The translations under genes and the position numbers were made by a program. The notes below the pieces were generated by a model. It was not told the DNA's origin. It searched no databases and saw only the letters and a list, made by a program, of their open reading frames with translations. 64,000 bases of DNA from an uncultured candidate division Zixibacteria bacterium (GTDB lineage Bacteria > Zixibacteria > MSB-5A5 > UBA10806 > 4484-95). This document shows positions 1 through 32,033 of this stretch, piece by piece (position 1 is the first letter of the stretch; each line of letters begins with the position of its first letter). The stretch is from NCBI GenBank assembly GCA_963668625.2, contig CAXXKA010000010.1:256001-320000 (forward strand), written 5' to 3'.

Positions 1-3000
1 ACCGGTTCGGGTCTGTTCGGATTCAACCCCGATTTCACTCAGGCCGGTATATATAATGTAGGATTCATAGCCTCGGACGGCGAACTGGTCGATACCGAGT
101 ACGTTGAGATAACGGTCAACCAGGTTAATATCGCACCCGAATTAAACCCGATTACTGATCAGGTAATCGATGAGGGGGATGTTTTCAATCTGGTTGTCAT
201 GTCAACTGATTACGATAACGATATATTGACCATGGTAGCGGAGGATTTACCTTCCAACGCCACGTTCACCGATAGCGGTAACGGTCACGGTCTATTCAGG
301 TTTAGCCCCGATTATACGCAAACAGGCGACTACACGGTTCGTTTCATTGTCAGTGATAGTGATCTGGCTGATACTTTAGATGTCGGGATTATCGTAAACA
401 ATACTAACCGTGTTCCTGTACTGGGTACGCTGACAGACCGAAGTGTGAATGAGGATGATTTCATTAGTTTCATCGTCGGCGCCTCCGATCCCGACGGCGT
501 TATCCCGGTGTTAACGACAATCGATTTGCCGGCTAATGCCTCTTTCGAGGACTATAGTACCGGTACCGGTTTGTTCACGTTCTCTCCCGATAACTCACAA
601 TCAGGCTTGTACACGATCGGCTTCGTCGCCTCTGACGGCGATCTGGCGGATACCGGCTATATTGATATCACGGTTAACCAGGTTAATTTAGCGCCGGTAC
701 TCAATCCACCGTCGCCACAATCGGTAGAGGAGGGTGGACATCTCGAGTTCGTGGTTACCTCCTCGGATTACGATTTGGATGCTTTAACGCTTAGCGCGGA
801 GGATATACCGCTTAACGCCACATTCACCGACTCGGGTAACGGCCACGGCTTATTCACTTTCGATCCGTCATTTGACCAGGCCGGAGTTTACCATGTGCGT
901 TTCATTGTTTCTGATTCCGAGTTCAGCGACAGCGCCCTGGTATCGATTACGGTAGGTGGAACCAACTTGCCGCCTGTCGGTGAAGCCATTACCGATAGGG
1001 AGGTTAATGAGGGTGGTTTCCTGTCAATTACCGTGAATTTCTCCGATCCCGACGGCCAATTGCTGGCTATCTCCTCGTTCGATAGGCCCTCGAATTCGTC
1101 ATTCGTGGATAACGGCAATAATTCGGGCCGCTTCGAGTTTAACCCCGATAGCTCACAGGCCGGATCATACATTGTTGGGTTTATCGGTTATGATGGTTCG
1201 CTTTCGGATACGATTTACGCAAATATAGATGTTAACGATATCAATGTCGCTCCTTATCTGGATCCGATCACGACACCGCAAACGGTTACCGAGGGGCAGA
1301 CTTTAACGTTTAACGTTTCCGCCTCCGATTACGACGGCAACACGTTAACCTTGACAACTTCCTCGTTGCCGGCTCACGCGGCGTTCACCGATTCGGGTAA
1401 CGGTGTCGGGACTTTCAGGTTCACTCCTAATTTCGAGCAATCCGGCGATTACGAAATCTGGTTTAATGTCAGCGATGGCTCCCTGAACGATTCGCAGTTG
1501 GTCGAGATAACGGTCAACGAGATCAACCGCGCCCCGGAGATTGCGGATATTATGTCACAGGTCATTGATGAGGGGAGCGATCTGTTCCTGTATATAAAGT
1601 CAAGTGATCCTGACGGCCAGATACCCGTATTGAGCGCGTTTGATATGCCTATCAGAACTGAGTTGATTGACAGTAGTAACGGCAGAGGTACTCTTATTTT
1701 CCGTCCTAATTACTCCCAGAGTGGTATTTATAATATCGGCATCGTTTCTAGTGATGGCGATCTTGCTGATACATTCGTAGTCGATATAACGGTAAACGAT
1801 ATAAATCTCGCTCCTGAAATCGATCCTTTAAATTCACAACTAACAAACGAGGGCGAGCATCTCGAGCTGGTCGTAACCTCCTCGGATTTCGATGAAGATA
1901 ACCTGGTATTCACGGTGAATGATTTACCGCTGAACGCTGTCTTTACCGACAGTTCTAACGGACACGGTCTGCTTACATTCGATCCCGATTACAGCCAGAG
2001 CGGTGTATATAATGTCCAGTTTATCGTAAGCGACGGAGATTTATCTGACACGGCCACGGTTGAGATTACGGTACTTCATATTAACATGCCGCCGGAGCTG
2101 GCCTCCATCGGCAGCAGGAGTGTCGCCGAATCGGGGCATCTGGAGCTGTTGATTACCGCTACCGATCTTGACGCTCAAACGTTGATATTAACCGCTGAAA
2201 GTCTGCCGCTAAACGCGGTATTCTCCGATAGTGGTAATGGTCACGGACTGTTCATGTTCGATCCCGACAATACGCAGGCCGGAACATATAATATAAGATT
2301 CATAGCCAGCGACGGTACATTAGCCGATAGCGAGCTGGTCGAGATAACGGTTAACGATGTCAACCAGGCGCCTGTTTTGGCCGCTCTTGGCGATACTACT
2401 GTCAATGAGGGTGGTACGCTGGTAATGACAGTAACGGCCACTGATTTCGATAATGATACGATAACACTTAATGCTTTCAACCTGCCGACTAACGCTTCCT
2501 TTACCGATAACGGCGGAGGATCGGGGACGTTCGATTTCAGTCCCGATTATTCGCAGGATGGGGCTTATACGGTCGGTTTCGTTGCCGGCGACGGCGATCT
2601 GGCGGACACTGTTCAGATAACCGTAACCGTAAACAATAGTAACCAGTCGCCCACGGTAGCTTCGATAACCGATAGAAATGTTAATGAGGGCGCTTACCTC
2701 AGCTTCATAGTTTCGGCAACCGATCCTGACGGAGTTACGCCGAGCCTTGCGATGATTGACGGACCTCTTAACGCAACGTTCGATGATAATGGTAACGGTT
2801 CCGGCCTGTTCACGTTCTCGCCCGGTTACACTCAAGCCGGCGCTTATGATATCGGTTTCGTAGGTTCCGATGGTGAACTGGCCGATACCGAGTACGTTCA
2901 AATTACGGTCAACCAGATTAATATCGGGCCGTCATTCGATCCGATTTCCGCGCAGGTTGTCAGCGAGGGCGGGCATCTGGAGTTCGCGGTTATCTCTACC

Positions 3001-6000
3001 GATTTCGATGATGATCCGCTGGTAGTTAATGAATATAGTTTACCGACTCACGCGGCTTTCGAGGATAGCGGTAACGGTCACGGCCTGTTTACCTTCGACC
3101 CCGACTATGGCCAGAGTGGAGTATATACGGTCAGATTCATCTCCAGTGATGGCAGTCTGTCCGATACTATCGATGTTGCCATAACGGTAACTAACAATAA
3201 CCTTCCGCCTACCCTGGGGAGCCTGGCCGACAGGATTATCGATGAGGATGATTACCTCGGTTTCGTAGTCAGCGCCGGTGATCCCGATGGCACCACGCCG
3301 GTTTTATCGGCTTTAGACGTGCCGGTAAACGGTACATTCGAGGACAACGGCAATGGTTCGGGGCTGTTCACTTTCAATCCTGACTACACTCAGTCCGGCG
3401 TTTATACTGTCACCTTCTTCGCCACCGACGGCGAACTTTCCGATACCGGTACTGTTGAAATTACCGTCAATAATGTCAACCTGGCTCCCGAGCTTGATCC
3501 CATCTCGCCGCAATCGGTCGAGGAGGGCGGAAATCTGGAGCTTGTAGTTTCCTCGACGGATTTCGATGGCGATCAGCTTTATCTGTCAGCCGAAAATATC
3601 CCCGCTAACTCATCATTTGCCGATAGCGGAAACGGTCATGGGCTGTTCACGTTCAACCCATCATTCGATCAGGACGGCGTGTATTATATAAGATTTATTT
3701 CATTCGACGGTAGCCTGGCCGATTCGCAGCTCGTTTCGGTTTCGGTTGGTCAGACGAATTTACCGCCGGTCGGGGAGGAGATATCGGCTCAGGTCATAGA
3801 TGAGCAGGCGACTCTTAATTTCCCCGTAAGTTTTACCGATCCCGACGGACAACTTCTGATACTATCCTCGATAAACGCCCCTGCTAATTCCTCATTCCAC
3901 GATAATAATGATGGCACGGGTGAGTTCGAGTTCAATCCCGACAGTTCGCAGGCGGGTGATTACACTGTCGGCTTTATCGGTTATGATGGTTTGTTGGCCG
4001 ATACGGTGTATGCCGAAATCACGGTTAATGATGTTAATGTCGCTCCGATACTGGGCCAGATTACCTCGCCGCAAACGGTGGCCGAGGGACAGCTTCTGAC
4101 ATTCGCCGTGGCAGCCTCCGATTTTGATGCAAATATTCTAACTCTGACAGCTTTGCCGCTGCCGACGAATGCCGTATTCGATGATTCGGGCAACGGTCAC
4201 GGGCTGTTCACGTTTAGCCCGGATTATACTCAATCCGGGCAGTACGATATCTGGTTCAAGGCCGCCGACTCATCACTGGCCGACTCACAATTGGTCGTGA
4301 TCAATGTTACCGAATTTAACCGCTCGCCGGTAATAACCTCGGTACCATCGCAGGTAATAAACGAGGGCGAGACATTACAGGTTGTTATCGAGGCTGTCGA
4401 TCCCGATGGCCAGATTCCTGTCCTTAGTGCTCTGGATATGCCGACGAATGCGGTTTTCACCGATAGCGGCAACGGTAACGGTTTATTCGAATTTACTCCC
4501 GATTTCAATCAGAATGGAAATTATACGGTCAGGTTCATAGCTACCGATTCGGAACTGTCCGATACGATTTCGGTCGAGATAACGGTTAACGAATCCAATC
4601 TGCCGCCGGAACTCGAAACTATAACCGATCAGGATATGGATGAAGGAACTCATCTCGAGTTCATTGTCAGTTCCTTCGATCCCGATCTGGATGAGTTAAC
4701 CCTGACTGCTCTTAACCTGCCCAGTAACGCAGCTTTCACCGATAGTGGAAACGGCCACGGCCTGTTTACCTTCGATCCTGATTACACGCAAGCCGGTGAT
4801 TATCAGGTTAGCTTCATCTCCAGCGACGGCGACCTGGCGGATACTATGGCGGCTAATATCACGGTCAACCATGTTAACCTTCCGCCGGAGCTGGCCGAGA
4901 TCGGCGCTCAGTCCGTTGACGAGAATGGCCATTTGGAGTTCGTAATTACCTCCAGTGATTTCGACGAGCAGGCATTGACATTGAACGTCGTCGATCTGCC
5001 GATAAACGCGGCATTCACCGATAGCGGTAATGGTCATGGGTTGTTTGCATTCGATCCCGATTACACCCAGGCCGGCGTCTATCCGGTATTATATATTGTC
5101 AGTGACGGCGAATTAGCCGATAGCGAGATGGTTAATATCACGGTGAACGATATAAACCTCGCTCCGGAGATAGCCGAGATAACCGACCAATCGGTTGCCG
5201 AGGGTGAACATCTGGAGTTTAACGTTATCGCGACAGATTTCGATGAGAACTCGCTTAGCCTAACAACAATCGATTTGCCGGCTAACGCAACGTTCGATGA
5301 TAGCGGCAATGGCCACGGCTTGTTTGCTTTCGATCCCGATTTCAACCAGCAGGGTGTTTATGATATCGGTTTCGTTGCCGGTGACGGTAACCTCGCCGAT
5401 ACCGAATACGTGCAGGTGACGGTATATGAAACAAACTTGCCGCCTGTTATAACCCCTGTTGCCGATAGAACACTCGATGAGGGCGCGTTCCAGAGTTTCG
5501 TGGTTAGCTCCTCTGATCCTGATGGTACGACGCCGACCTTAACCATGTTCAATAATCCCGCTAACACTCTTTTCGAAGATAACGGCAACGGTACGGGCTT
5601 GTTCCAGTTCTCGCCGGACTATACTCAGTCTGGTGTCTACGATATCGGCTTTATCGCCTCGGATGGCGTACTGGCGGATACCGAGATGGTTCAAGTAACC
5701 GTAAACCATATAAATATAGCGCCGGTGTTAGAGCCGGTTGCCTCACAGGTAGTAAGCGAGGGCGGTCATCTGGAATTCGTGGTTGCCTCCTCGGATTTCG
5801 ATGCGGATGTTCTGACATTACTGGCCTCCAACATGCCTTCTAACGCGACATTTGCCGATAGCGGCAACGGTCATGGGCTGTTCGAGTTCGATCCGGTTTA
5901 CGATCAGGGTGGTAACTACAATGTCCGCTTCATATGTTCGGATGGCGACCTGACCGATACGATTGATGTAACGATCACGGTAAATAACACTAACCAGTCG

Positions 6001-9000
6001 CCCGAACTCGGGACACTGACCGATAGAAATATCGATGAAGACCAGTATTTGGGTTTCGTGGTTTCGGCAACGGATCCGGACGGTACCACACCGATACTAA
6101 GTGTTTTCGATTTACCGACCAACGCCCAGTTCGAGGATAACGGTAACGGTACGGGGCTGTTTACGTTCCGTCCCGATTATTCGCAAGCGGGTGTTTTGAA
6201 TGTCGGATTTATAGCCAGCGATGGCGAGTTGCGCGATACCGGTTACGTCGAGATCACCGTAAACCAGGTTAACCTCGCTCCCGAGCTTGGTTCGATTCTG
6301 CCTCAATCCGTAGAGGAAGGCGGACACCTGGAGATGGTCGTACTATCCACTGATTTTGACAATGACGCACTGACACTATCCGCCGAGGACTTACCCGTTA
6401 ATGCGGTGTTCTCCGATAGCGGAAACGGTCACGGCTTGTTTGTCTTCGATCCTACATTCGATCAGGAAGGCATATATTATATCAGATTCATAGTGACGGA
6501 CGGTGCACTGGCCGATTCGCAGTTAGTTTCGGTTTCAGTCGGCGGCACAAACCTGCCACCGGTAGGAGAAGCTGTTGCCGACCAGGAGGTCGCCGAACAG
6601 GGTAATCTGCAGTTCGCGGTTACGTTCGCCGACCCGGACGGACAACTTCTGAGCCTGTCGAGTTTCGATCGACCGGGGAATTCATCATTTATTGATAATG
6701 AGGACGGCACCGGTTCGTTCACTTTCGATCCCGATAGTTCACAAGCGGGCGTCTATGATGTCGGCTTCGTCGGTTTCGATGGTTTACTGGCGGATACGGT
6801 GATGGTTAGTATAACCGTTACGGATGTTAATGTCAGGCCGAGTCTCGATACGATCCAGACACCTCAACTGGTTGTTGAGGGCGAAAGTTTGATTTTCGGT
6901 GTAACGGCTGATGATTTTGACGGTAACGTGTTGAACCTGACGACCTCGACCTTACCGACTAACGCGGCTTTCGTGGATTCAGGCAATAACGCCGGATCGT
7001 TTAGTTTCTCGCCCGACTTTACTCAGTCGGGAAGTTACGATATCTGGTTTATCGCCTCGGATACCGCTCTGGCCGATTCTCAGATGGTCACGATCTCTGT
7101 GGTCGAGGAGAATCTGCCGCCGGTGTTAGCTGATGTTCCGGCCCAGTCTATAGATGAGGGCGGACTGCTCGAGTTCGTGGTTATCTCCACCGATCCTGAC
7201 GGCCAAACCTTATCGTTATGGGCACTGGATATGCCGGATAATGCCACATTCGATGACAGCGGTAACGGTCATGGCCTGTTTAGTTTCTCGCCCGACAATG
7301 CTCAGGCAGGGGAATATGCGGTTGGCTTCGTTGCCAGTGATGGCGGTTTGAACGATACTATCAGTGTAGATATCACGGTAAATCATATAAACCTCGCGCC
7401 GGTGCTCGATACTATCGGTCCGTTGACATTATATGAGGGAACACGTTTCGAACTGGTTATCACCTCGAGTGATTTTGATCTGGATGAACTTACCCTTACC
7501 GCCTCGAACCTGCCGGTTAACGCCTCGTTCGCCGATAGCGGCAACGGTCACGGCCTGTTCGTATTTGATCCGGCTTATGGTCAGGCAGGTGATTATACGG
7601 TTACGTTCATCACTAATGACGGTGTGCTGGCTGATACCGAGATAGTTGAGATAACGGTGCAGCAATCTAACCGTCCCCCGAAATGGGAAACAATACCGAA
7701 CTACTCGGTACAGGAGGGCGGTATTCTTCAATTTACCGTAGCTGCCTCCGATCCAGATTCCACTACTCCGGCTCTTTCAATCGATAACTATCCGGCCAAT
7801 ATTACCTTCGTCGATTCCGGCAATGGTCATGGTTGGTTCAGGTTTGCCCCATCCTACACGCAATCCGGGGTGTACGATATATTGTTCTTGGCCTCTGATG
7901 GCGATCTGGTGGATACCGCGATCGTTCAGATTACGGTTAACGAGTCGGGCAACCAGCATCCGGTGATAACACCCGTTCAGTCACAAGAGGTCAACGAGGG
8001 CGAGCATCTCGAGTTCGTACTGATCGCTACCGATCCTGAAGGCTCGATACCGATTCTATCGGCTATGAATATGCCGGCCAACTCGGCGTTTATCGATTCG
8101 GGTAACGGTCATGGACTTTACCAGTTCGATCCTGATTTCTTCCAATCAGGCGTGTACGATGTCAGTTTTATCGCTTTTGACGGTCAGTATGCCGACACTG
8201 AATTGGTCGAGATCACCGTTTACGATGTAGGGTTCGCGCCGGAACTCGATCCGATAGGGCCGCAGACCGTTGCGGAGGGTTCGAGTTTAGAACTAACGAT
8301 AACCGGTTCCGATCCCGACCTGACATTCCCCGAGCTTATAGCCGAGAACTTGCCTGAAAACGCCACTTTCACCGATAGCGGTAACGGTGTCGGTGTGATG
8401 ATATTCAATCCCGATTATACTCAGGCGGGAGTTATTACGGTGCTGTTTATCGCTACGGATGGCGCGCTCTCCGATTCGGAATACGTTCAGGTGACAGTTA
8501 CCGAATTCGGTAATGTTGCGCCAATACTCGAACTGATACCCGATATTAGCTTGAGCGAGGGTGATTCGGTCGGTATAACTATTTCGGCTGCCGATCCCGA
8601 TGGCAACGTACCGTTCCTGTCGGTAACCGATACGCCGTCCAATACCGAGTTTGACGATAATCTCGATGGAACCGGGACATTCATTTTCCAACCCGATTAT
8701 TATCAGGCAGGCGAATACGATATCACGTTTATTGCGGATGATGGCGAACTGGCCGATTCCCAGATGGTTCATATAACGGTATCCGACCGCAATGGTCCAC
8801 CGGCTATCGACGAGATCATGGCGCAAAGCGTAACCGAGGGTGACAGCCTTGGATTCTTGATTAACTCGGTCGATCCCGATAACAATGCTGTTACATTAAG
8901 CGCTGACGATGTTCCTGAAAACGCTTACCTGGTTGATAATACCGATGGTACCGGTGTGTTCAATTTCCTGCCCGGCTACACTCAAGCAGGTTTATACGAG

Positions 9001-11919: not shown

Positions 11920-11951
11920 GTTTAAAAGCTCCACCGTGAGGTTTGGTTGAG

Positions 11952-13460
11952 ATGAAAAAAATAGCAGTAAGTTTAATCATCCTGATAATGCTCCTGAGCG
12001 GCAGCGCTGCTTTTGGAGAGTTTAACCATAAAAATATGGTTTTACTCGAGGATCAGGATGGGTACGAAATTTCATTCGGGCCATCCGTGGAAGCCTACCA
12101 GGGACAGGAAAATATAATTGTACCGATTCGATTGGTAAGCGAGGAGGAGGTCAATTACATTTATTCGTATATTGAATATGACGCCTCGTTGCTGGCGCCG
12201 GTTACAGTGGCTCCATCCATGTTTTTTCAGCATTTCGAGTACGATTTCGTCTCTGAAGGTAAAATCGAACTGGAACTTCAATGCAACTTGCTGCCCCCGC
12301 CGGCGGTAGACCCGATTCCTCCCGGTGATACGGCTTTCGCTTATATAGTATTCGATGTTCTGGCGGAAAATATCGATCATGACCTGGCCGCTTTGCTGGA
12401 TTTTGCCGAGGATATAAACACGCCGTTTCCGGATAATTTTATCATGCTGGATAATGGTTACTTTATTGTACCTCCGCAACTCAGTCTTACCCCGGGCTCG
12501 GTTTTCATTTTTCGGCCTCTTTATGGAGATATCAATCTCAACAATATGGTTTATGAAATCGGAGATATGATTACATTTATTTCGCATTTGAGCGGGGAGA
12601 CAAGTTTCACTCCCCGCCAAACTGCGAATTCGGATTGTAATCGTGATGGCGTAGCGGCTACGGTTTCGGACCTGGTTTACATGCTAAATGTGATAAATGG
12701 AGAACCCGATACATTGCTGTACTCGCCGGGTATGCCGATTGAACCATATCAGCTCACGGAAATCTATACCATATATGCTCCAGATCGGCTTAAAATCCTT
12801 GACAATAATTATATAATCCATATATTTCTAATAGCTGAAGAGCCTCTTAACGGCTTTTTAATTTCGCTTAAAACTCCTGATTTTATTTCGAGTGTCGGTG
12901 ATGTAGCTCTTGGCAGCAACGGAAACGACAAGATAGTTCTGAATTCAAGATCAAACAACGACAACCTGAATATTATTGGTTGTTGTCAGGGTGATGCTTT
13001 GAGTTCAACCGGTAAAATTCATTTACAAATCCCGGTTACCAGTAATGTATGTTTTACCAAGTCGGATTTAAGCGTTACGTTCAAAGACTTTTCAGATGAA
13101 GTAGGGAATATGATTAACGCAGAATTTGAAGTGCAAATCGAAGAATTGAATACTATTGCTATTAATACTACGGAGGAGGAAGATATATCCTCAGATGTAA
13201 GCATTTATCCCAATCCTTTCAACTCACGCGTTAATATTTCTTACGCTCTCTCACAGCAGAGCCTGGTTTCGGTGGAGGTCTTCGATATACTTGGCAGAAA
13301 GGTCAAGGTACTCAAGGACGGTTACGAAAACGCCGGAGTTCAGCATGTTAGCTGGGATGGTCGCAACTCGAGCGGAAGAATCGTATCATCGGGAATGTAT
13401 TTTTGCAAGTTAAGGTTAAATTCGCAGGAACAAACTATCAAAATCCATTTTTTGAAGTAG
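11952..13460 (+). CDS. Secreted cohesin-like + dockerin-like + T9SS/FlgD-Ig C-terminal sorting domain protein (putative adaptor scaffoldin)
   Basis: Signal peptide MKKIAVSLIILIMLLSGSAAFG. Cohesin-like strand pattern (VEAYQGQENIIVPIRL...IEYDASLL...PIPPGDTAFAYIVFDV). Dockerin-like YGDINLNN.YEIGD...SDCNRDG..ATVSDLVYMLNVING. C-terminal YPNPFN...VFDILGRKV...WDGRNSSG..VSSGMYF. ATG 11952 preferred over TTG 11943. Confidence 0.75.
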   Translation: MKKIAVSLIILIMLLSGSAAFGEFNHKNMVLLEDQDGYEISFGPSVEAYQGQENIIVPIRLVSEEEVNYIYSYIEYDASLLAPVTVAPSMFFQHFEYDFVSEGKIELELQCNLLPPPAVDPIPPGDTAFAYIVFDVLAENIDHDLAALLDFAEDINTPFPDNFIMLDNGYFIVPPQLSLTPGSVFIFRPLYGDINLNNMVYEIGDMITFISHLSGETSFTPRQTANSDCNRDGVAATVSDLVYMLNVINGEPDTLLYSPGMPIEPYQLTEIYTIYAPDRLKILDNNYIIHIFLIAEEPLNGFLISLKTPDFISSVGDVALGSNGNDKIVLNSRSNNDNLNIIGCCQGDALSSTGKIHLQIPVTSNVCFTKSDLSVTFKDFSDEVGNMINAEFEVQIEELNTIAINTTEEEDISSDVSIYPNPFNSRVNISYALSQQSLVSVEVFDILGRKVKVLKDGYENAGVQHVSWDGRNSSGRIVSSGMYFCKLRLNSQEQTIKIHFLK

Positions 13461-13755
13461 TTGTATTTACCGGCTGTCAAATATGCTTCTATTCTTCAGT
13501 TGTTTCTTGAACTGCGTTTGCCTTGCATAGAGCTTTGAAAAGCATAAAATTAAATAAGAAAGTAACTTGCGTGTAATTGGTAAGTGTAAACTTATTTTTC
13601 TAAGAAAGGAAGGTGTCAATAGGTTAAAGGAAATTACAAGATTGATACTCATTACAATTAACTCTTTGGCTTTGGAAATCAGGGTAATCATAGAGAAAAA
13701 AAGAAGTGTAAGTTAGTTTAACAAATTACTCCAAAGATTTTATGGAGGAAAAGTA

Positions 13756-16700
13756 ATGAGAAAAACTCTGTTACTTACAACAGTAATTATTCTCGCATTC
13801 AGCTTGGTTTTTGCCTGGGCTGGTGACAAGAAGGACCAGGTAGAAAAGAAGATTACTGCGACCAGTAATACGCACGCGCCTCAGGTTGATGATGTTAAAG
13901 AACAGAAAGCTCCTGAAGTCGCTCCTGCCGAACAACCGGCCGTAGTTCCTGAAGCTAAGGCTAAATTCATCGATCCCAATGATGAAAGAGTAGCTAAAGC
14001 TGACGAAGAACTGTATTTGCAGAAACAGAATGGTGCCTTTAAACCTGTCGAGCAGGTTGAAGAGGTTAACACCGTAGTAAAAGCAAAGGCAAAAGAAGTC
14101 AAAGCCGAAGAAGAAAAAGCAGTACGCATCATATCCGAGCATGAATTATTGAAAATCAAAGCCTCGGAAATGGGTGTTTCCGTAGAAGAGCTTCTCCACA
14201 AGGAAAGTATTGTACCTCTTACTCCTCCCGGATTGACTACTGCTACCGGTGATAATTGCGCCGATCCTATCACTCTGACAATTCCCGCAGATTTGCCCTT
14301 TGTCGATCAAGATCAGGCTACATGCGGTAGAGGCAATTCAGACAGTACCTCTTGCATGGGGAACTATGACGGTGGTGAAGATATCGTCTACGAAATCACC
14401 GTTACTGCCGATACCTATGTTAATTTCATTTTTGATCCTAAGGGAACAATCTGGACCGGTTTTGCTTTAGCAGCCGAATGTCCCCCTGTGACCTGTATTT
14501 TTAACAATACTTCAGCATCCGGTTCCGAGAGATCTCAAGACGGCGTTTTACTTGAGGCTACAGTCGGCACTTATTACCTGATGATCGATACCTATCCCGA
14601 TCCCGATTGTATTCCGGATTTTGATTTGACTATCGAAGAGTATACGGCTCCTACGGGTCGTTGCTGTGATTACACTGATCCTCCGAACCCGGTTTGTACC
14701 GATGGTGTTGAAGAGGCTGACTGTGATGGCGCGGCCATGACCTGGGTTGAAGGTCTTCTGTGTTCCACAGATCCTTGTCCGTCATATATTGGTAACGATT
14801 GCGCATATCCGATTGTCATTACCGATGCTGATCTTCCTTATTCCGAAACCGGGCAGACTACCTGTATGCGCGGTAACACTTACTCGGAAACCTGTCTGGG
14901 TAACTACGACAATGACGAGGATATCCTTTATGCATTCACCAATACATCTGGTGCAGATATCTTTATCGATGTCGAGGTAACCAATGCTACCGCGGCATAT
15001 CTCGGTATATTAGCCGATACACTTTGCCCCGGTGGTTCTTCATGTTTAGACTATGAGACCGGCTATTACGGCTCTTATGATATCTCCTTAGAGATCGTAC
15101 CGGTTAATGCGGGTCAGACCGTATATATCATGGTTGATAACTATGAAGAGGGTTGTTTCGATTTCGATTTCGATATAACCCAGTACTTAGTTCCTACCGG
15201 ACGTTGCTGTAACTACGATACCGATCCTGATAACCCGACCTGTACTGACGCTATGGAAGAAGACGACTGTGTTGCTTCCGGTACTGATGTAAGCTGGGTT
15301 GAGGATTATGATTGTACCACCAATCCTTGCCCGGTTCCCCCGGTTAACGACGATTGCGCTGATGCTATGACCGTCGTTCCTGATGTCGAGTATACAGTGG
15401 ATAACACCAGAGCTACCGATGATGGCGATGGCGGTGAAGACATTAGACATAATGTCTGGTACTGCTATACAGCTACCTTGACCGGTACAGCTCAGATCAG
15501 ACTGTGCGATTCTGATTTCGATACCGAATTAGCGGTTTATGAAGGCTGCAATTGCGATGCCGGTATGGCCAGCCGCATGCTCGCGTATAACGATGACAAC
15601 TCTACGGTTTGCGGTTCCGGTGGTCGTTCCGCTCTCGATCTGGATATCACTCTTGGTGAGAGTTACCTGATTGAGGCTGGTACGTATTCATCTTATACCA
15701 CTTTTGGCGATATCGTGCTTATCATCGAAGAAACCGCGGCTCCGGTCGAGGGTGATTCGATTGAGAACGCCTACACTATTCCCAGCTTGCCGTACAGCGA
15801 TGCGGGTAACACCTCCGCCTTTACCGACAACTACGTAGGTAGCTGCGGCACTCATGTCAGTGCCCCGGATGTCGTTTACGCTTATACCGCCACTGTCGAT
15901 ACGTTTATCGATATAAGCCTTTGCGGTAGCTCGTACGACACTCGTTTGTATGTATACGAGAACGATACCAGCACTGAGGTTGCCTGTGACGACGATGGTT
16001 GTCCCTCCGTGACTACAACAACTCGGTCCTGGATTAATGCTCTCTATGTAACCTCCGGCGACACTTATTACTTTGTTATTGATGGTTATAGCTCAAACAG
16101 CGGCGATTATGTAATCGACGTTGACTTTGCCGATCCGCCGGCTCTTGGTGATGCCTGTTCGAATCCGATCGACATTACCGCTTTCCCATACACCTTCGCG
16201 GATAACTCCTGCAACTACACCAACAAAGTCAGATACGACGGCCCGGATGTAATCTGGAGATTCACCCTGGCTGCTGCTGCTCGTCTCCAGTTCTCGCTGT
16301 GTAACTCCGATAGCGTCTTCTACGATAACCTCTTCCTCCATGAAGATGGTACTTGCGGAGGCGATTATCTTACTTACGAGTACGATGGTTGCGCATCCTC
16401 AGCTATGACTGAGTTCACTTATGACCTTGGAGCCGGTACCTACTATCTGGTGCTCGATGGTTCTTCCTCAACTCCGAATTGCGGCGAGTTCCAGTTAGAC
16501 ATCGCGGAAATCGTGATTCCGACCGGTCGTTGCTGTTATTACGATACTAATCCTGCTGATCCATACAGCCCGATCTGTGTTGATGCTATTACCGAGGTCG
16601 ATTGCGATGCCTTGATCGATACATTCAGCGGTACCTGGACCGAAGGTCTGGATTGTACCTCTGATCCTTGCCCGGTTCCTGTTGACTTTACAGGCACTGA

Positions 16701-19700
16701 GACATTCGATGATGCGGTCAATTCGTTCTACAACTACTCGATGGCTGATGACGCTGCCTGGGAATGGACTGCTACTTATGGCAATCCCGCCCCTGGCATG
16801 TATCACAATGACACTTATGTCGAATGTGATGACTATCTGGTCTCCAACGGCTCATATACCGTTCCGGATGTCGAGATGATCTCACTGTACTTCGATCAGG
16901 ATTGTAATTATCCGACATATTATCAGCTGCATGAGGTCCTGGTATCCACCGACTTTGCCGGTGATCCTTCCACTGCTACCTGGGTTACTCTTTATGAAGG
17001 TTTCGGTGATGAAGCATGGACAACCATGTCGTTCAGCCTGGAAGCTTACAGAGGCCAGGATGTCAATTTCGCGTTCCATTATATGGGGAACGGCGATACC
17101 GAATGGTATATCGATAACGTTAAAGTGCAGATTCCGCCCACCGGTCGTTGCTGCGATTACACCGCAGATATCAACAACCCCGTTTGTACGGATGACGTAT
17201 ACGCCGATGCTTGCGCCGGCGAACTTATGACCTGGCTCGAGGCTGGCACATGTAGCACCGATCCTTGCCCGGTTCCGCCCGCCAACGACGATTGCGCGAA
17301 TGCCATTGATGTGACCGGTACATATCCTGTTTCCGGCACCGGTACTACCATTATGGCTCAACCGGATTGTCCCGATTCGCTCGATGAATTCCGTGCCGTA
17401 TGGTACAAATTCGACTTAGCTTATGCTTACAATAATGTCACTATTACTATGTGTGGTGATGACACTGATATAGATACCGTTGGCATTATTCTTACTGATG
17501 ATTGTGTCTGCGATGATTATATCTTGGCAACCGGTTACGATTTCGATACTACTTACTGCTCCACTGGTTATACGGGCGTTCAGTTATACATCAACTATCT
17601 CCCGGCTGGAACTTACTACTGGCCAGCTAAAATGACGGATGCCAACGGCGAAGGTATGGATTTCTCCTATACTATCGACGTAGTCGAGTACGTACCGCTT
17701 CCGGGTGATATGTGTGAAAACGCGTTAACCGTAGATGCTATGCCGTTTACTTCCGATACTCTCAACACCTGTAATTATGGTGACTTCTGCGATATCTCGG
17801 GTTTAAACTCTTCGGAAATCATTTTCGAGTGGGTTGTCCCGGCTGAGTATGTCTACACGGTTTCGTTGTGCGATAGTATTACCGACTATGACACCAAAAT
17901 CGCCATTTATGCCGATGAGTGTTGCACTGGACCCGAAACCTACTATGCTTACAACGATGATGCTTGTGGAACAGCTTCCGAGATCACCACAACTTTCTTC
18001 CCCGGCACTTATTATGTCGTGGTTGATGGTTATGATGGCGACTGTGGTCTGACCATCCTCGATATCTCTGAGTTTGGTGAGCCGCCGGTTGGCGCTTGCT
18101 GTTATGGTGATTTCTACAACCAGTCCTGTGCCGATGCGACTGAATTCGAGTGTATCGATACTTATGCTGGTTTCTCATGGGTCGAGGGCGATTCCTGTGC
18201 CACGGCCGAATGCCCCTCATACGGCGCATTCAACTCTGATGTCACAGCTATTGACGACTCTGTTGATGCTGTTGGACCTGGCAATGTTAAGACCCAGGTA
18301 ATCAATATCAGCAATACTGGTGCCGATACTCTGACATTTACCGCTAATGCTATTATCGATCCTCCTACTCCGGCTGTTGGTTTAAGCTCTGCTCAGTTTA
18401 CTACACTTAGTGGTATCTACAATGATGTCAACCTCCAAAAGGGTGACCCGCTAGATAGAGCCCAAGGCTTGAAATTCCAACAGAGCTTATTGGCTGATTA
18501 TACCGGTTTTGAAACATTTGATTCGAATATCGGTGAATTCACTGCCTACAATGTTGATACTGGTGATACTACTACATGGTACTGGTATGATAGCGATGGT
18601 AATCCTGCCGGCTGTGCTAGAATTGACTATAATTCCTACAACGCTGAGGATGATTACCTCATTTCGAACGGTACATTCACGGTTCCTGATGTTGACGATG
18701 TTGCCTTGACATTCGATCAGAGGGATGTATTCACTTATGGTTTATACTATAATACCCATGAGGTTTTAATCTCCTTAGATTTCGCTGGAGATCCTGCAAC
18801 AGCCACCTGGGTCCAGCTTTACGAAGATGATGCCCAGTCAACATGGGAAACTATTTCCATTAGTATGGAAACCTATAGAGGCGATGCTGTAAATATCGCC
18901 TTCCATTATATCGGTGATGACGCTGATGATTGGATGGTCGATAATGTTTACATCGGCACTCCGCAAACAGGTCGTTGCTGTTATGGTAGCATTTACGAGC
19001 CTGATTGTGTTGATGGTGTCACTCTTGACTCCTGTGATGCTCTTAGCGGAATATTTACTGCTGAGATCGACTGTAGCACCCCTTGCGAATACTGGCCGCA
19101 TTGTGATGATGATGCTCTCGTTGGTCAGTATCCGGATATGGAAACGTGGACTGGCGGAACGGCTGATGCCGGTGTTTCGTTAAAACGTTACGATAGCTAT
19201 GCCGGTGCTTATGGTCTCATCGAAGAGGTAACATTCTGGGGCTTCGACCGTTGGCATGACGGTACCAGCTGGGTTGAGTGCGATGAAGAGCCGATGGACT
19301 TCGAGATTCAGTTCTGGACTGACGATGCCGGTATTCCCGGAACCTTAGTTTACAGTGAATCATTATCGATTAATCCTGAAGCATACACCTGGGATCTTTC
19401 CGGCAGAACTCTTAAAGAGTTCCACGCTGTATTAAACACGGCTGTTGAGCTGGATAATGGTTGGATCTCGATTCAGGGTATCAGCATCAATGATCCTGAT
19501 TGCTGGTTCCTCTGGCTCTCCTCCACTGATGGTGATGATCAGTCACTCACCGACGATGGTACAGGTTTGGCAGTTGAAGCTTTTGACTTAAACTTCTGCT
19601 TCAATGGTACCTACCAGGCTCCGTGGTTGACTATCGATGTCGATGAAGGCGAAATTGCTGCCGGCGATCCGGCTATTGCGATTACCGCTAGAATGGATGC

Positions 19701-20142
19701 CGAGTTCCTGAGCTGCGGTAATACCTACACTGGTAGCATTAACTTCACCAGTAACGATCCGCAGGTTCCCACGTACTCCGTGCCTGTTTCATTCACTACA
19801 GATTGCGGTCCTAACGGATACGAATATCTGCCTGGTGATGCCAATATGGCTGCCGGTGCCTGGCCGCCGAACGTAATCGGCGCTGACGTGACCTACCTGG
19901 TCAACTACTTCCGCGCTATCGCCTCGCCGTGTCTGCTCGGTGGTTACTATGCCTCCGGTGACGCTAACGGTGATTGCTTGGTAATCGGTGCCGACGTTAC
20001 TTATCTCGTCCAGTATTTCCGTGGTGCTAATACGATCAAGTACTGCGGCGATGATGTTGGCGAGGATGACTACACACCTGCATGGCTTAATACTGGGGAA
20101 CTACCCCCGAGTGCGCCTGCCGGTTGGCCGAACTGCGAATAG
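13756..20142 (+). CDS. Large secreted acidic Cys-rich multidomain protein (PPC-like and cleaved-adhesin-like domains, six G(R/A)CC modules, C-terminal variant dockerin)
   Basis: GGAGGA RBS and signal peptide. Repeated D.VY..T...CGS.YDT.L.VY...DD.C domains. Two copies of DDYL.SNG..TVP...HEVL.S.DF.GDP.TATW.....YRG..VN.AFHY.G....W..DNV. Ends PGDANM...VIGADVTYLVNYFR...GDANGDCLVIGADVTYLVQYFRG. Confidence 0.85.
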   Translation: MRKTLLLTTVIILAFSLVFAWAGDKKDQVEKKITATSNTHAPQVDDVKEQKAPEVAPAEQPAVVPEAKAKFIDPNDERVAKADEELYLQKQNGAFKPVEQVEEVNTVVKAKAKEVKAEEEKAVRIISEHELLKIKASEMGVSVEELLHKESIVPLTPPGLTTATGDNCADPITLTIPADLPFVDQDQATCGRGNSDSTSCMGNYDGGEDIVYEITVTADTYVNFIFDPKGTIWTGFALAAECPPVTCIFNNTSASGSERSQDGVLLEATVGTYYLMIDTYPDPDCIPDFDLTIEEYTAPTGRCCDYTDPPNPVCTDGVEEADCDGAAMTWVEGLLCSTDPCPSYIGNDCAYPIVITDADLPYSETGQTTCMRGNTYSETCLGNYDNDEDILYAFTNTSGADIFIDVEVTNATAAYLGILADTLCPGGSSCLDYETGYYGSYDISLEIVPVNAGQTVYIMVDNYEEGCFDFDFDITQYLVPTGRCCNYDTDPDNPTCTDAMEEDDCVASGTDVSWVEDYDCTTNPCPVPPVNDDCADAMTVVPDVEYTVDNTRATDDGDGGEDIRHNVWYCYTATLTGTAQIRLCDSDFDTELAVYEGCNCDAGMASRMLAYNDDNSTVCGSGGRSALDLDITLGESYLIEAGTYSSYTTFGDIVLIIEETAAPVEGDSIENAYTIPSLPYSDAGNTSAFTDNYVGSCGTHVSAPDVVYAYTATVDTFIDISLCGSSYDTRLYVYENDTSTEVACDDDGCPSVTTTTRSWINALYVTSGDTYYFVIDGYSSNSGDYVIDVDFADPPALGDACSNPIDITAFPYTFADNSCNYTNKVRYDGPDVIWRFTLAAAARLQFSLCNSDSVFYDNLFLHEDGTCGGDYLTYEYDGCASSAMTEFTYDLGAGTYYLVLDGSSSTPNCGEFQLDIAEIVIPTGRCCYYDTNPADPYSPICVDAITEVDCDALIDTFSGTWTEGLDCTSDPCPVPVDFTGTETFDDAVNSFYNYSMADDAAWEWTATYGNPAPGMYHNDTYVECDDYLVSNGSYTVPDVEMISLYFDQDCNYPTYYQLHEVLVSTDFAGDPSTATWVTLYEGFGDEAWTTMSFSLEAYRGQDVNFAFHYMGNGDTEWYIDNVKVQIPPTGRCCDYTADINNPVCTDDVYADACAGELMTWLEAGTCSTDPCPVPPANDDCANAIDVTGTYPVSGTGTTIMAQPDCPDSLDEFRAVWYKFDLAYAYNNVTITMCGDDTDIDTVGIILTDDCVCDDYILATGYDFDTTYCSTGYTGVQLYINYLPAGTYYWPAKMTDANGEGMDFSYTIDVVEYVPLPGDMCENALTVDAMPFTSDTLNTCNYGDFCDISGLNSSEIIFEWVVPAEYVYTVSLCDSITDYDTKIAIYADECCTGPETYYAYNDDACGTASEITTTFFPGTYYVVVDGYDGDCGLTILDISEFGEPPVGACCYGDFYNQSCADATEFECIDTYAGFSWVEGDSCATAECPSYGAFNSDVTAIDDSVDAVGPGNVKTQVINISNTGADTLTFTANAIIDPPTPAVGLSSAQFTTLSGIYNDVNLQKGDPLDRAQGLKFQQSLLADYTGFETFDSNIGEFTAYNVDTGDTTTWYWYDSDGNPAGCARIDYNSYNAEDDYLISNGTFTVPDVDDVALTFDQRDVFTYGLYYNTHEVLISLDFAGDPATATWVQLYEDDAQSTWETISISMETYRGDAVNIAFHYIGDDADDWMVDNVYIGTPQTGRCCYGSIYEPDCVDGVTLDSCDALSGIFTAEIDCSTPCEYWPHCDDDALVGQYPDMETWTGGTADAGVSLKRYDSYAGAYGLIEEVTFWGFDRWHDGTSWVECDEEPMDFEIQFWTDDAGIPGTLVYSESLSINPEAYTWDLSGRTLKEFHAVLNTAVELDNGWISIQGISINDPDCWFLWLSSTDGDDQSLTDDGTGLAVEAFDLNFCFNGTYQAPWLTIDVDEGEIAAGDPAIAITARMDAEFLSCGNTYTGSINFTSNDPQVPTYSVPVSFTTDCGPNGYEYLPGDANMAAGAWPPNVIGADVTYLVNYFRAIASPCLLGGYYASGDANGDCLVIGADVTYLVQYFRGANTIKYCGDDVGEDDYTPAWLNTGELPPSAPAGWPNCE

Positions 20143-20166
20143 TAGATATTCAAGTACGGCAAATAC

Positions 20167-20263
20167 ATGGTCGTTCCGTTCTAAACGGAGCGACCATTCC
20201 TTAGCCAATAGGAATGGTAAAATAAAGATTAGGGAGTCGCTTATGGTGGCTCCCTATCTTATT
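20167..20263 (+). terminator. Two tandem stem-loops after the 2128-aa gene
   Basis: ATGGTCGTTCCGTT-cta-AACGGAGCGACCAT (20167-20197) and AGGGAGTCGC-ttatg-GTGGCTCCCT (20231-20255) followed by ATCTTATT. Confidence 0.6.
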
Positions 20264-20290
20264 GTCTAGCATAGTATTAGTAGATTTAAG

Positions 20291-20319
20291 TTGACAAAGC
20301 GTATTATTTTTTTTACTTT
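20291..20319 (+). promoter_or_regulatory. Sigma70-type promoter for GH35 gene
   Basis: TTGACA-17 nt-TACTTT, ~60 nt upstream of the start. Confidence 0.55.
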
Positions 20320-20377
20320 ACTACTCGGTTGTAAATAATTAATGAGAAATATGGTTTTTAAAGAGAAATAAAGTAAA

Positions 20378-22543
20378 TTGTTAGGACTAATTGACAACAA
20401 ATTCATGATTGGCCGCGATACGTTCCTGCCTGTATCCGCTGAAATACATTATTTCAGAGTTCCTAAGAGATATTGGTCTATTTGTTTCGAAAGAATCAAA
20501 AGGGCTGGTTTCAGGATAATATCCAGTTACGTCCCCTGGAATCTTCATGAGGAAAAACCCGGCCAATTCGATTTTCAGGGACTTGATAATCCGCATAAGG
20601 ATTTGATCGTTTTTCTCGAGTTAGCGCGCGAATTCGGTTTTAAGATAATTCTCCGGCCCGGTCCATGGATTAAATCGGAATGGCCCGATGGCGGTTTGCC
20701 CAAATACATTTTTTCGGATGAATCGATCATCGCCCGTGACAGCACCGGCGAGTTATTGATTGCCAAAAACAGTGGTGGGGTTAAACCCAGTTACCAACCG
20801 TCATACCTTCACCCGAAATATATGAATCATGTCAAGCGCTACATAGGTGGCCTGGTGGAGGCTATTCAAAATTACATTTTCCCAAAAGGGCCCGTGTTTC
20901 TGGTTCAACTCGATAATGAAATTAATTTCGGGGGGAACGATAAATTACTCGAATCCGATTATAACAATTATGTCGTAAGTGAATTATATCCGGCGTTTTT
21001 AGAGGATAAATACGAAAACGTTAAAAACTTGCCGTCATGTTATGGCAAGAATAGAAGTTTTAACGGTATACTCCCGCCGACCGAGATAACAGTAAAGAAG
21101 GCCGAGCAACTCGTTCATTATTTCGATTGGCTCGAATTTAAAGGTACGATAGTCAGAGATTATATTAACCAGTTGCGCGATAGATGGGAATCTATGGGCG
21201 TTGGCTGTATGTTCTCAGTGACGATACCGTCCTCATTCGATTTTAATATACCGATACCATGGGGCGAAATTCGCGGCGAGCGTACTATACTCGGTACCTC
21301 GATCGAGCACGAGGATGATATCACCCAGGTTACCCGCAAACTGAGACTGACCGAAAGCATAACAGGCTACTGCTGGTCATCCCAGTTGGCAACCGGCGAA
21401 CCGGGTGAAATCTCGGGAAAAGCCTCTGAGGATATATATAAAAAACAGCGTTTCCTGCTTATCTCCTCGCTGGCTGCCGGCCTTAAAGGATTGAACTATT
21501 ACATGTTCGTCGGACGCGATCACTGGAAAGGCTCAGCGCTCGATGCTGATGGCACTGTTAATCCTAATTACGATGATATCCGGAAACTGAATGTCGCGCT
21601 TGAGGTGATGGATTTAGGCACGGCTTCGTCGAAATCCAGTGTCTCGATAGGCTTGTATAAACCTTATCAGTGGTATTCCGAAATCGATCCTAAAGGCGAG
21701 TTCGCTTATATCAGCGATCTGGTCGATCAAACTTTCTCGAATATTTTAGCCGATCTTTCAGGCTTGAATTATGACTATAATATTTACGACCTGGACAGCC
21801 TGGATGAGAGCTGGCATGCCGAGGATTTCAGTGAGACGAAACTGATGTTCGTACCCTGCGCCGAATATATGTCCGATCATTTGCAGAAAAAGCTGTTAGA
21901 TTTGGTTAACGATGGTATGATAATCGTGTTCATCGGCCTGTTGCCGAGATTCAACCTTCAGTTCAAATCCTCGAGAATTCTTGCTAAAGGCCTGGGTATT
22001 CAAACAAGAGCCGGTTATTCGCCGGGATTCATTGAGGCCAATAACCATTCGTTCCGATCGATTATTTACGGTACCATTCAGGGCAAAGACTCAACCAAAG
22101 TGATAGCTAAAGCGGGGCCGAAGATTGTCGGAGTTAGCAGGAAACTAGGCAAAGGCAAATCTTATTTCTTCAGTTACGATATCGCCGCCGGCGGTGAGCC
22201 GGGGCGTCTTTGTTTCTTAAAAGATATACTGATGGAAAACGAAATAACCACAGCTATTAATTGCTCCGAATCGGATATCGACGTGGTGATTAAAACCAAC
22301 GATAAAGGCGCCGCCTTGTTCCTGATGAATGCCGGATCAGGGCAATTAATCAGGCATAAACGCAAGAAAGTTGTGGTCTCCGTCGATCTATCCCAGTGCG
22401 GAATCAGGCAGGCTAAAATAGTTCTACATGACATTTTCGATATGGAAAATGTTATAAAAACTACCTCACAGGAATTGCGTGATGGTTTGATATTCGAGAT
22501 GGATTATCTTGATGCCCGAGTGTTCTGGATTCCCAAGAAATAA
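20378..22543 (+). CDS. Glycoside hydrolase family 35 (beta-galactosidase-like) protein with trimerisation-type domain
   Basis: EIHYFRVP..YW, YVPWNLHE..PGQFDF, ILRPGPWI.SEW.DGGLP, VQLDNE and GLNYYMFVG motifs. TTG start. Confidence 0.85.
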   Translation: MLGLIDNKFMIGRDTFLPVSAEIHYFRVPKRYWSICFERIKRAGFRIISSYVPWNLHEEKPGQFDFQGLDNPHKDLIVFLELAREFGFKIILRPGPWIKSEWPDGGLPKYIFSDESIIARDSTGELLIAKNSGGVKPSYQPSYLHPKYMNHVKRYIGGLVEAIQNYIFPKGPVFLVQLDNEINFGGNDKLLESDYNNYVVSELYPAFLEDKYENVKNLPSCYGKNRSFNGILPPTEITVKKAEQLVHYFDWLEFKGTIVRDYINQLRDRWESMGVGCMFSVTIPSSFDFNIPIPWGEIRGERTILGTSIEHEDDITQVTRKLRLTESITGYCWSSQLATGEPGEISGKASEDIYKKQRFLLISSLAAGLKGLNYYMFVGRDHWKGSALDADGTVNPNYDDIRKLNVALEVMDLGTASSKSSVSIGLYKPYQWYSEIDPKGEFAYISDLVDQTFSNILADLSGLNYDYNIYDLDSLDESWHAEDFSETKLMFVPCAEYMSDHLQKKLLDLVNDGMIIVFIGLLPRFNLQFKSSRILAKGLGIQTRAGYSPGFIEANNHSFRSIIYGTIQGKDSTKVIAKAGPKIVGVSRKLGKGKSYFFSYDIAAGGEPGRLCFLKDILMENEITTAINCSESDIDVVIKTNDKGAALFLMNAGSGQLIRHKRKKVVVSVDLSQCGIRQAKIVLHDIFDMENVIKTTSQELRDGLIFEMDYLDARVFWIPKK

Positions 22544-24891: not shown

Positions 24892-25061
24892 TTCGATATT
24901 CCTTTCGTTACTGATAAATTACTATCTTCATGATCCAGTATACGAAAGGTGATTGAAATTATAGCCCTGATGAGTCAATCGGGACGTTCGACTTTATAAA
25001 GTTGTACTCATAGGGATGATTAATTAGGGTATTATTAGGATTGGCTCTTGTCGTCTCGATT

Positions 25062-31579: not shown

Positions 31580-32033
31580 GATTAGCCTCCAGTTTTTGAT
31601 ATTAGTAGTTTGTATCAATATACGAAAAATTAACAGGATGGGGAAATACTAATTTGGAAGAGATCCAAAGAAGCAGGGGATTTCAGTACAAAAAGTATTA
31701 TCTATCGTAAGGTGATAAGCTAAACCCGACCCGCCGGCGACCTGTCCAGCATGATGTTTGCTCTGTTCTCGAATCAACCCCTTATTTACCATCTACAGAA
31801 AAAACGCCGGTACGATCTAACGGATATCGAGTATGATATATTTGCGGAAAAATTATCATTAAGTTGTATTTTGACTAAACGGCTAAAATATTTTCGTGAA
31901 ATGTCAGGTTAAACCAGAACCTACCGACAGGTTTGACTGGAGTCGCAATACCTCGGAATTGAGGTTTATCGATATCCTGCCACGATATCCCGGTGAAAGA
32001 GTGAATCTAATTACATCTTACTTATCTTTTGCC

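Follow-up and report, generated by a model that had tools for sequence, protein, structure and literature searches.

This study concerns a 64,000-nucleotide (nt) stretch of the genome of an uncultured candidate division Zixibacteria bacterium (GCA_963668625.2, contig CAXXKA010000010.1; G000:C10:256001-320000), hereafter referred to as the window, and the cohesin- and dockerin-bearing proteins encoded in its first 20,142 nt. The genome comprises 4.3 Mb in 10 contigs and is 95.9% complete. As the initial annotation of the stretch had proposed, three co-oriented open reading frames (ORFs) lie on the + strand at 1..11919 (5′ end open at the window edge), 11943..13460, and 13756..20142, and they are referred to here as genes 1, 2, and 3. 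On the basis of the observed domain identities and folds, the genome-wide counts, the near-exclusion of dockerins and sorting tails, and the synteny, we put at roughly 0.6 the probability that this region is the 3′ end of a conserved cluster encoding the core of a surface cohesin–dockerin docking system, with gene 2 as the adaptor-anchor. The general model, in which cohesin proteins with a C-terminal sorting domain (CTD) are fixed at the surface by a type IX secretion system (T9SS) and hold dockerin proteins, is regarded as quite likely. Dockerins were located with a hidden Markov model (HMM), referred to as the genome HMM, which was iterated from 24 Pfam-level matches over 7,479 six-frame ORFs of at least 80 amino acids (aa); cohesins and CTDs were located with HMMs of our own. 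The features of the three genes are as follows.

1..11919, + strand: gene 1, 3′ part of a 5,816-aa ORF with signal peptide, 62 tandem repeats, dockerin, and poly-Pro tail
11683..11844, + strand: gene 1 dockerin, short canonical subtype A3, residues 3895-3948 of the window translation, Dockerin_1 35.4 bits
11943..13460, + strand: gene 2, 505 aa from TTG, with signal peptide, first cohesin (Coh1), dockerin (Doc), second cohesin (Coh2), and T9SS CTD
12057..12518, + strand: gene 2 Coh1, type I cohesin fold, residues 39-192, by AlphaFold2 (AF2) model and structure and profile matches
12519..12701, + strand: gene 2 internal dockerin, divergent class B, residues 193-253, genome HMM 41.0 bits
12789..13154, + strand: gene 2 Coh2, compact cohesin-like beta-sandwich, residues 283-404, domain model with a predicted local distance difference test score (pLDDT) of 88.5
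13203..13457, + strand: gene 2 T9SS type A CTD, residues 421-505
13756..20142, + strand: gene 3, 2,128 aa, with signal peptide, Lys/Glu/Ala-rich stretch, Cys-rich beta-sandwich modules, two choice-of-anchor J domains, and dockerin
18508..18954, + strand: best-scoring choice-of-anchor J (MAM-like) domain of gene 3, residues 1585-1733, NF038128
19828..20139, + strand: gene 3 dockerin (subtype A1; residues 2025-2090, nt 19828-20025) and its 38-aa Cys-bearing tail ending WPNCE

Domain architecture of the three proteins

The protein of gene 2 had initially been described as a signal-peptide protein with a cohesin-like N-terminal domain, a different dockerin of its own at about 12522-12702, a second beta-sandwich, and a T9SS-type CTD, and each of these elements was recovered, the dockerin at 12519-12701. 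The N-terminus is visibly hydrophobic, in the manner of a signal peptide, and the true start is likely the ATG at 11952, in keeping with the 502 aa of the database form of the protein; the nearest named database relatives are labelled ‘candidate division Zixibacteria’. The AF2 model computed on a 39-row alignment has a mean pLDDT of 78, and Coh1 reaches 81-96 over most of its length, mostly above 90. Coh1 models as a type I cohesin: it superposes on 5nrm_A with a Z of 17.7 and a root-mean-square deviation of 1.8 over 135 of 141 residues (VIA), the 24 best rows by Z in the structure search are all single cohesin modules, and the 13 best Foldseek hits are cohesins. Using hhalign, Coh1 matched a genome cohesin profile (16 modules, seeded from seven Pfam cohesin matches, with gene 2 left out) at 81% and E 1.2e-5, a dockerin control giving 1%, and it first enters the iterative cohesin HMM at E 4.9e-4.

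The second beta-sandwich is present and is in fact a second cohesin-like module. An unbiased search of 48,161 chains with the Coh2 model returned only cohesins among the top 20, with a moderate Z of 9.5-6.7, the best Foldseek match is the cohesin 2vo8 (E 3e-4), and hhalign places the domain on the genome cohesin profile at 89% (E 2.2e-6). Because eight strands are predicted in its model against the nine of the canonical cohesin fold, Coh2 is considered a compact variant. The CTD (residues 421-501) scores 38.3 bits with PF18962 (Por_Secre_tail; cutoff 27), 42.6 bits with TIGR04183 (cutoff 23), and 29.3 bits with PF13860, and gene 2 thereby combines the two marks of T9SS type A cargo, namely a CTD above the curated cutoffs and an N-terminal signal peptide.

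Gene 1 is a dockerin-tipped giant, as annotated, and extends beyond the window, which cuts the gene: its start lies at L001:14469 (G000:C10:250469), 5,531 nt upstream, and the window holds the 3′ two thirds of the 5,816-aa ORF. A repeat HMM resolves 62 units with a period of 93-98 aa, which cover 5,531 of the 5,816 residues and match Big_9, Cadherin_4/5, and He_PIG in Pfam and tandem-95 in NCBIfam; the units are immunoglobulin (Ig)/cadherin-like. The dockerin, annotated at 11680-11850, was found at 11683-11844, where it exceeds the Dockerin_1 (PF00404) gathering score of 22.9 and reaches 78.7 bits with the genome HMM, and the dockerin and its GPPPPP tail are kept in six orthologues. Neither an enzyme family nor a T9SS tail was found in gene 1 with Pfam, NCBIfam, or the genome-specific CTD HMM. 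A complex prediction for Coh1 (residues 38-192, 39-row alignment) and the gene 1 dockerin (7-row alignment), run without controls, gave ipSAE values of 0.10 and 0.09 against a mark of 0.32 and speaks neither for nor against binding.

The protein of gene 3 contains 91 cysteines, and its repeated beta-sandwich modules are joined by four ‘GRCC...PCP’ linkers. NF038128 matches two stretches (81.6 bits), of which the second copy is weaker and lies near residues 1086-1126, and Pfam adds a weak InhA-like_MAM match. No enzyme domain was found in Pfam and NCBIfam scans and no T9SS tail by these or by the genome-specific CTD HMM; genes 1 and 3 are thus both without a sorting domain, as had been stated. 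The C-terminal dockerin, expected at 19825-20142, scores 99.8 bits with the genome HMM at nt 19828-20025, its tail running to 20139, and the printed stretch of dockerin plus tail is letter-for-letter identical to the paralogue C4_99734. The body domains also have paralogues that terminate with a CTD in place of the dockerin, which fits dockerin and CTD as alternative surface anchors. As read from the sequence, the three dockerins differ in their calcium loops: both loops of gene 1 have 12 residues with the canonical D-x-N-x-D-G...D spacing, each of the two loop repeats of gene 2 is one residue over the canonical 12, and gene 3 combines a loop 1 with a 5-residue ‘AGAWPP’ insert and a canonical loop 2.

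Dockerins, cohesins, and sorting tails across the genome

Dockerins are carried by 78 ORFs of the genome, nearly all of which contain the helix G(A/S)DV(T/S)YLVNYFRG as the genome consensus. Simple motifs divide them into 44 A1, 15 A2, 12 A3, and 7 divergent (B or other), and the 71 ORFs of the first three groups represent cargo subtypes sharing the consensus helix. A1 is marked by a WPP insertion in its first repeat together with a conserved Cys tail that ends WPNCE, A2 by a long Cys-containing linker, and A3 by its short, canonical form; gene 1 carries A3, gene 2 carries B, and gene 3 carries A1, the commonest subtype of the genome. About 20 proteins that are unrelated in other respects carry the A1 module at 73-79% identity. 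In this subtype, the 5-residue WPP insert breaks the canonical calcium loop of repeat 1, and about 32 aa of the tail (for example, window 20026-20139) are conserved as C-P-D-Y ... W ... L-P ... A-P ... W-P-N-C-E, with paired cysteines. The motif common to both giants, which the initial annotation had singled out, is present in each but is not special to them, since it is the genome-wide dockerin consensus and the two subtypes differ (A3 vs. A1); it provides no link from these two genes to gene 2, and it was rejected as the mark of a private pair.

The cargo was surveyed with Pfam at E up to 1e-5 on 77 further dockerin or cohesin ORFs. Peptidases are represented by 7 Peptidase_C25, 3 S8, 2 M14, and 2 C1 members, and the other cargo by 4 arylsulfotransferase-like, 4 beta-helix, 3 FG-GAP, and 2 phosphoesterase proteins and singles of several families; 33 of the 77 gave no Pfam match. 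Of the seven C25 peptidases, six carry the A2 subtype and the remaining one A1; A2 is also found on two of the three S8 peptidases. The initial view that the complex is structural or adhesive rather than degradative holds for the two giants of the locus, which are enzyme-free; genome-wide, at least 14 peptidases are part of the cargo, and the system cannot be called purely adhesive. No glycoside hydrolase (GH) or carbohydrate-binding module (CBM) was detected in the 77 ORFs at this threshold or in the cluster genes at looser cutoffs, and a cellulosome was rejected because no such cargo was seen. The GH35-like gene at 20378-22543 is the sole GH in the vicinity and is dockerin-free.

Over the same 7,479 ORFs, 16 cohesin ORFs with about 20 modules were found, and 216 ORFs of the genome, gene 2 among them, end in a T9SS type A CTD. 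Dockerin and CTD are nearly mutually exclusive, whereas cohesin and CTD co-occur: 73 dockerin ORFs are CTD-less, only five ORFs combine dockerin and CTD, all with a divergent internal dockerin and four of the five being cohesin proteins, and 10 of the 16 cohesin ORFs carry a CTD. At least four proteins of the genome show the order Coh-Doc-Coh-CTD or, at a minimum, Doc-Coh-CTD. A second small cohesin–dockerin gene pair lies on another contig (G000:C7:6629-9510; L078, L079), where a C1 papain-like peptidase with a lectin-like domain, divergent dockerin, and CTD is followed directly by a free-standing 170-aa CTD-less cohesin.

These distributions bear on the view that the modules do not pair at all, the dockerin-like ones being calcium-binding stabilizing or ligand-binding modules and the cohesin-like ones Ig-like spacers, with the adjacency of their genes reflecting co-regulation of surface proteins. 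Peer and colleagues are said to have described, in 2009, many non-cellulosomal dockerin-like and cohesin-like modules without a known partner, and the scores of several modules under the Pfam cutoffs are in keeping with this. However, the near-exclusion of dockerin and CTD alongside the association of cohesin and CTD, the occurrence of one dockerin module at 73-79% identity on about 20 unrelated bodies, and the clustering of cohesin and dockerin genes in a conserved order all argue for pairing, and a locus of unpaired modules appears very improbable.

Core genes of the T9SS, a search for which had been recommended along with the initial annotation, are found in the genome: PorU scores 681.8 bits (cutoff 420) and SprA_N 110 bits (cutoff 27), and a PorV-like gene a few hundred bases downstream of PorU scores 87.8 bits, under its cutoff of 250. 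Two PilMNO-secretin loci and no other secretin systems were found; they belong to the type IV pilus or type II secretion system (T2SS) class, and no dedicated T2SS was clearly identified. The CTD-less cargo may cross the outer membrane through these PilMNO-secretin loci, or it may ride out on a cohesin carrier. The latter would mean that the dockerin partners are bound by cohesin-CTD carriers while in the periplasm and are drawn along by them through the T9SS translocon, the dockerin acting as an indirect secretion tag. The 73 CTD-less dockerin ORFs, whose printed N-termini resemble Sec signal peptides by eye (no predictor was used), the CTD on 10 of the 16 cohesin ORFs, and the want of a clearly dedicated T2SS are compatible with such transport, and the tight coupling of genes 1 and 2 would suit a 1:1 assembly. 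However, a rod of 5,816 aa is a cumbersome passenger, the cargo could instead leave through the two PilMNO-secretin systems if these are T2SS-like, and we know of no precedent for piggy-back transport through the T9SS, although no search for one was made; carrier-borne export is given little probability.

The gene cluster and its conservation

Genes 1-3 are no more than the 3′ end of a larger, co-oriented cluster that spans about 34 kb (G000:C10, about 242.7-276.1 kb). Upstream of gene 1, on the same strand and in this order, lie genes for a 261-aa A3-dockerin protein, a 776-aa Coh-Doc-CTD protein, a 279-aa Coh-CTD protein, a 276-aa Coh-CTD protein, and, directly before gene 1, a protein of 807 aa that combines three cohesins with Big_9, an internal dockerin, and a CTD. 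The assembly of three genes that had been envisaged is thus a co-oriented trio and not the whole unit, since the main cohesin-CTD proteins of the cluster, four in number, are encoded upstream, outside the window. A further beta-helix-Coh-Doc-Coh-CTD protein is encoded 40 kb upstream.

Conservation was assessed in a phylum set of 201 genomes, the present genome (G000) included. Gene 2 has a match at E up to 1e-20 in 50 of the 201, and among the 18 genomes belonging to its family or the sister family, 16 have a full-length orthologue (E below 1e-70). The gene order, conservation of which in relatives had been left as a point to verify, is retained: an ORF with dockerin and poly-Pro lies directly upstream of the gene 2 orthologue in 15 of 16 loci, and the sixteenth locus stops at a contig edge. 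In all six loci that extend further, this ORF is a gene 1 orthologue with 42-46% identity over about 1,480 aa; the orthologues, in six relatives with longer contigs, measure between 1,486 and more than 6,397 aa, and each either overlaps the gene 2 orthologue or is separated from it by no more than about 26 nt. One or two dockerin proteins are encoded directly downstream in five of the six relatives, with part homology to gene 3 in three of the six. The relative G028 keeps the entire upstream cohesin set in the same order, and G187 has a Coh-Doc-CTD protein, two Coh-CTD proteins, and a three-cohesin protein up to the edge of the stretch examined. In G187 (L033:5483-19060), the gene 1 orthologue appears as five consecutive ORFs (749, 1,152, 520, 705, and 1,486 aa), which represent either a broken gene or repeats assembled with frame errors. 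In another family, three shorter Coh-Doc proteins, without Coh2 and CTD, also follow a dockerin-ended ORF.

Conservation is uneven within the gene 2 family. Coh1 is far more conserved than Coh2, and the internal dockerin is the best-conserved stretch in the 39-member alignment. At E thresholds of 1e-3, 1e-10, and 1e-30, a profile of the Coh1-Doc didomain matches 1,652, 335, and 17 cluster representatives, respectively, and many of the matches sit inside proteins of about 800 aa. The prominence of the internal dockerin is in keeping with a reading in which it binds Coh1 or Coh2 of other copies, or of related Coh-Doc-Coh-CTD proteins, to build a surface lattice or fiber, the giants docking elsewhere, for example on the 276-, 279-, and 807-aa proteins. 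The recurrence of this domain order in at least four proteins of the genome, the match of the gene 2 profile to the Doc-Coh-CTD part of scaffoldins of about 800 aa in relatives, and the wide occurrence of the didomain point in the same direction. Such a lattice would, however, leave unexplained why a dockerin-ended giant is constantly the immediate upstream neighbor, and the dockerin is poorly placed in the full-length model (pLDDT about 48-67). As a substitute for the adaptor-anchor function it seems unlikely, although it is compatible with that function.

In the preferred explanation, cohesin proteins with T9SS type A tails would be exported via type IX secretion and attached to the outer membrane by PorU/PorV, and CTD-less proteins with a C-terminal dockerin would be exported by Sec and then held by the surface cohesins. 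Gene 2 would serve as a dedicated adaptor-anchor in the order Coh1, Doc, Coh2, CTD, in which the partner of Coh1 would most likely be the canonical dockerin of gene 1, the giant repeat adhesin directly upstream; Coh1 is far more conserved than Coh2. This predicted pairing is tentative, with a chance slightly below even. The divergent dockerin of gene 2 and Coh2 may provide links to other scaffoldins or to further copies of gene 2, and gene 3 is presumed to be a non-enzymatic binding protein that probably docks on a different cohesin.

Several observations weigh against this explanation. Three of the modules are below or outside the Pfam thresholds: the isolated Coh1 domain matches Cohesin (PF00963) only weakly (13.6 bits, E 0.077, against a gathering score of 24.1) and is not among the Cohesin matches of the whole-genome Pfam scan at E up to 1, the gene 2 dockerin reaches 20.3 bits with Dockerin_1 at residues ~194-241, under the gathering score of 22.9, and the gene 3 dockerin has no Dockerin_1 match in Pfam. 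A tree of the 20 cohesin modules contains no grouping that assigns dockerin partners, 78 dockerin ORFs compare with only about 20 cohesin modules, and any one of the four cohesin proteins encoded upstream could just as well be the docking site of gene 1. The explanation does not account for the passage of the 73 CTD-less dockerin proteins across the outer membrane, since they are without a T9SS tail. Furthermore, GldM and GldL gave no match with the Bacteroidota models TIGR03517, PF12081, and TIGR03513; the control genomes were silent for TIGR03517 and TIGR03513 as well, so that this non-detection says little and does not amount to absence, and the type IX motor may be too divergent or may be absent. 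Every binding step, the surface location, and the export of the dockerin proteins are steps that we infer.

The following features lie downstream of gene 3.

20230..20256, + strand: terminator-like hairpin with a 12-bp stem, 88 nt past the gene 3 stop, consensus match only
20378..22543, + strand: 721-aa GH35/GH42-like beta-galactosidase homologue, just past the hairpin
22600..26183, - strand: TonB-dependent receptor with a CarboxypepD_reg N-domain (763 aa) and AraC-type regulator (373 aa)
29000..31618, - strand: 872-aa ORF with a T9SS CTD by the genome-specific HMM

No terminator-like site was found in the gaps between genes 1 and 2 and between genes 2 and 3. Promoter and terminator counts in the scan of 11800-20500 were not above those of shuffles, and only the hairpin after gene 3 is of note. 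The beta-galactosidase homologue has neither a CTD nor, by Pfam or the genome HMM, a dockerin, and a full-length orthologue with 48-55% identity lies downstream of the cluster in five of the six relatives examined. Upstream of the cluster (L001:890-6020; G000:C10:236890-242020), genes for a 574-aa GAF-PAS histidine kinase and a 1,163-aa Ser/Thr kinase-TPR protein are found, the latter with a counterpart of 32-39% identity at the corresponding position in G028; the two may be regulators of the cluster.

Relation to known systems and significance

The design encoded at the locus resembles that of clostridial and ruminococcal cellulosomes with adaptor or anchoring scaffoldins (A. cellulolyticus ScaA/ScaB/ScaC, R. 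flavefaciens ScaA/B/C/E, and C. thermocellum OlpA/OlpC), on whose type I cohesins Coh1 superposes with a Z of 16-17.7. As in these systems, cohesins and a dockerin are combined in one protein in the manner of an adaptor scaffoldin, scaffoldin genes are clustered, and the presence of several dockerin subtypes suggests specificity classes. By contrast, those cellulosomes belong to Gram-positive bacteria with S-layer homology (SLH) or sortase anchoring, whereas a diderm with T9SS tails is considered here; the cargo consists of peptidases, arylsulfotransferase-like and beta-helix proteins, and adhesins, with no GH seen in the ORFs scanned; and the gene 2 dockerin is located between two cohesins instead of at the C-terminus. 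T9SS type A cargo of Bacteroidota, such as gingipains, is anchored by its CTD through PorU/PorV, each cargo protein having its own CTD. Gene 2 and 215 other ORFs of the present genome likewise end in the same CTD family; unlike in Bacteroidota, 73 secreted proteins, including seven C25 gingipain-like peptidases, bear a dockerin instead.

The closest published idea is the cellulosome-like complex for polypeptides and polysaccharides proposed in silico for Ca. Stygibacter of the Cloacimonadota (Williams et al., 2021; PMC8542988). That article describes S8, C25, and GH enzymes with signal peptides and C-terminal dockerins, together with a 3,755-aa cohesin scaffoldin bearing a conserved surface-attachment CTD. 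Both organisms are diderms of the Fibrobacteres-Chlorobi-Bacteroidetes (FCB) group with dockerin-tagged S8 and C25 peptidases and a cohesin protein with a surface CTD. However, Ca. Stygibacter has one scaffoldin with tandem cohesins and CBMs, whereas many small cohesin-CTD proteins with internal dockerins are found here, in another phylum, with an adaptor beside a giant adhesin and no CBM or GH cargo seen; both proposals derive solely from sequence. A second parallel is the Cag_2038/Cag_2037 pair of the epibiont Chlorobium chlorochromatii, for which a 2026 preprint describes a filamentous Ig-fold protein ending in a dockerin beside a protein with an N-terminal cohesin, the two being modeled as binding (10.64898/2026.03.19.712371). 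The two cases share membership of the FCB group, a non-cellulosomal character, and a dockerin-ended Ig-repeat filament encoded beside a cohesin protein. In Chlorobium, the cohesin is carried by a giant RTX-type substrate of the type I secretion system (T1SS) and forms a single pair, in contrast to the 505-aa T9SS-tailed adaptor and 78 dockerins described here. In the library searched, no paper joins ‘Zixibacteria’ with ‘dockerin’, and among the top 15 matches listed for cellulosome, cohesin, and scaffoldin, none named Zixibacteria; a 2024 survey of cellulosome-displaying bacteria (PMC11557425) contains none of the five terms sought in it.

Cohesin–dockerin assembly is a textbook case for Gram-positive cellulose degraders, and the 78 dockerin proteins in a 4.3-Mb genome of an uncultured diderm phylum about equal the number in a cellulosome producer. 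If the binding proposed here is true, it raises the question of how 73 CTD-less proteins pass the outer membrane; should they be pulled out by cohesin-CTD carriers, a single CTD adaptor would take on both the export and the anchoring of a 5,816-aa adhesin, and about 70 CTD-less proteins would depend on a few carriers. True binding would further assign a function to the Coh-Doc profile family with its 1,652 cluster representatives (E up to 1e-3), and it would represent a second, independent way to build a surface multi-protein machine on the outer membrane.

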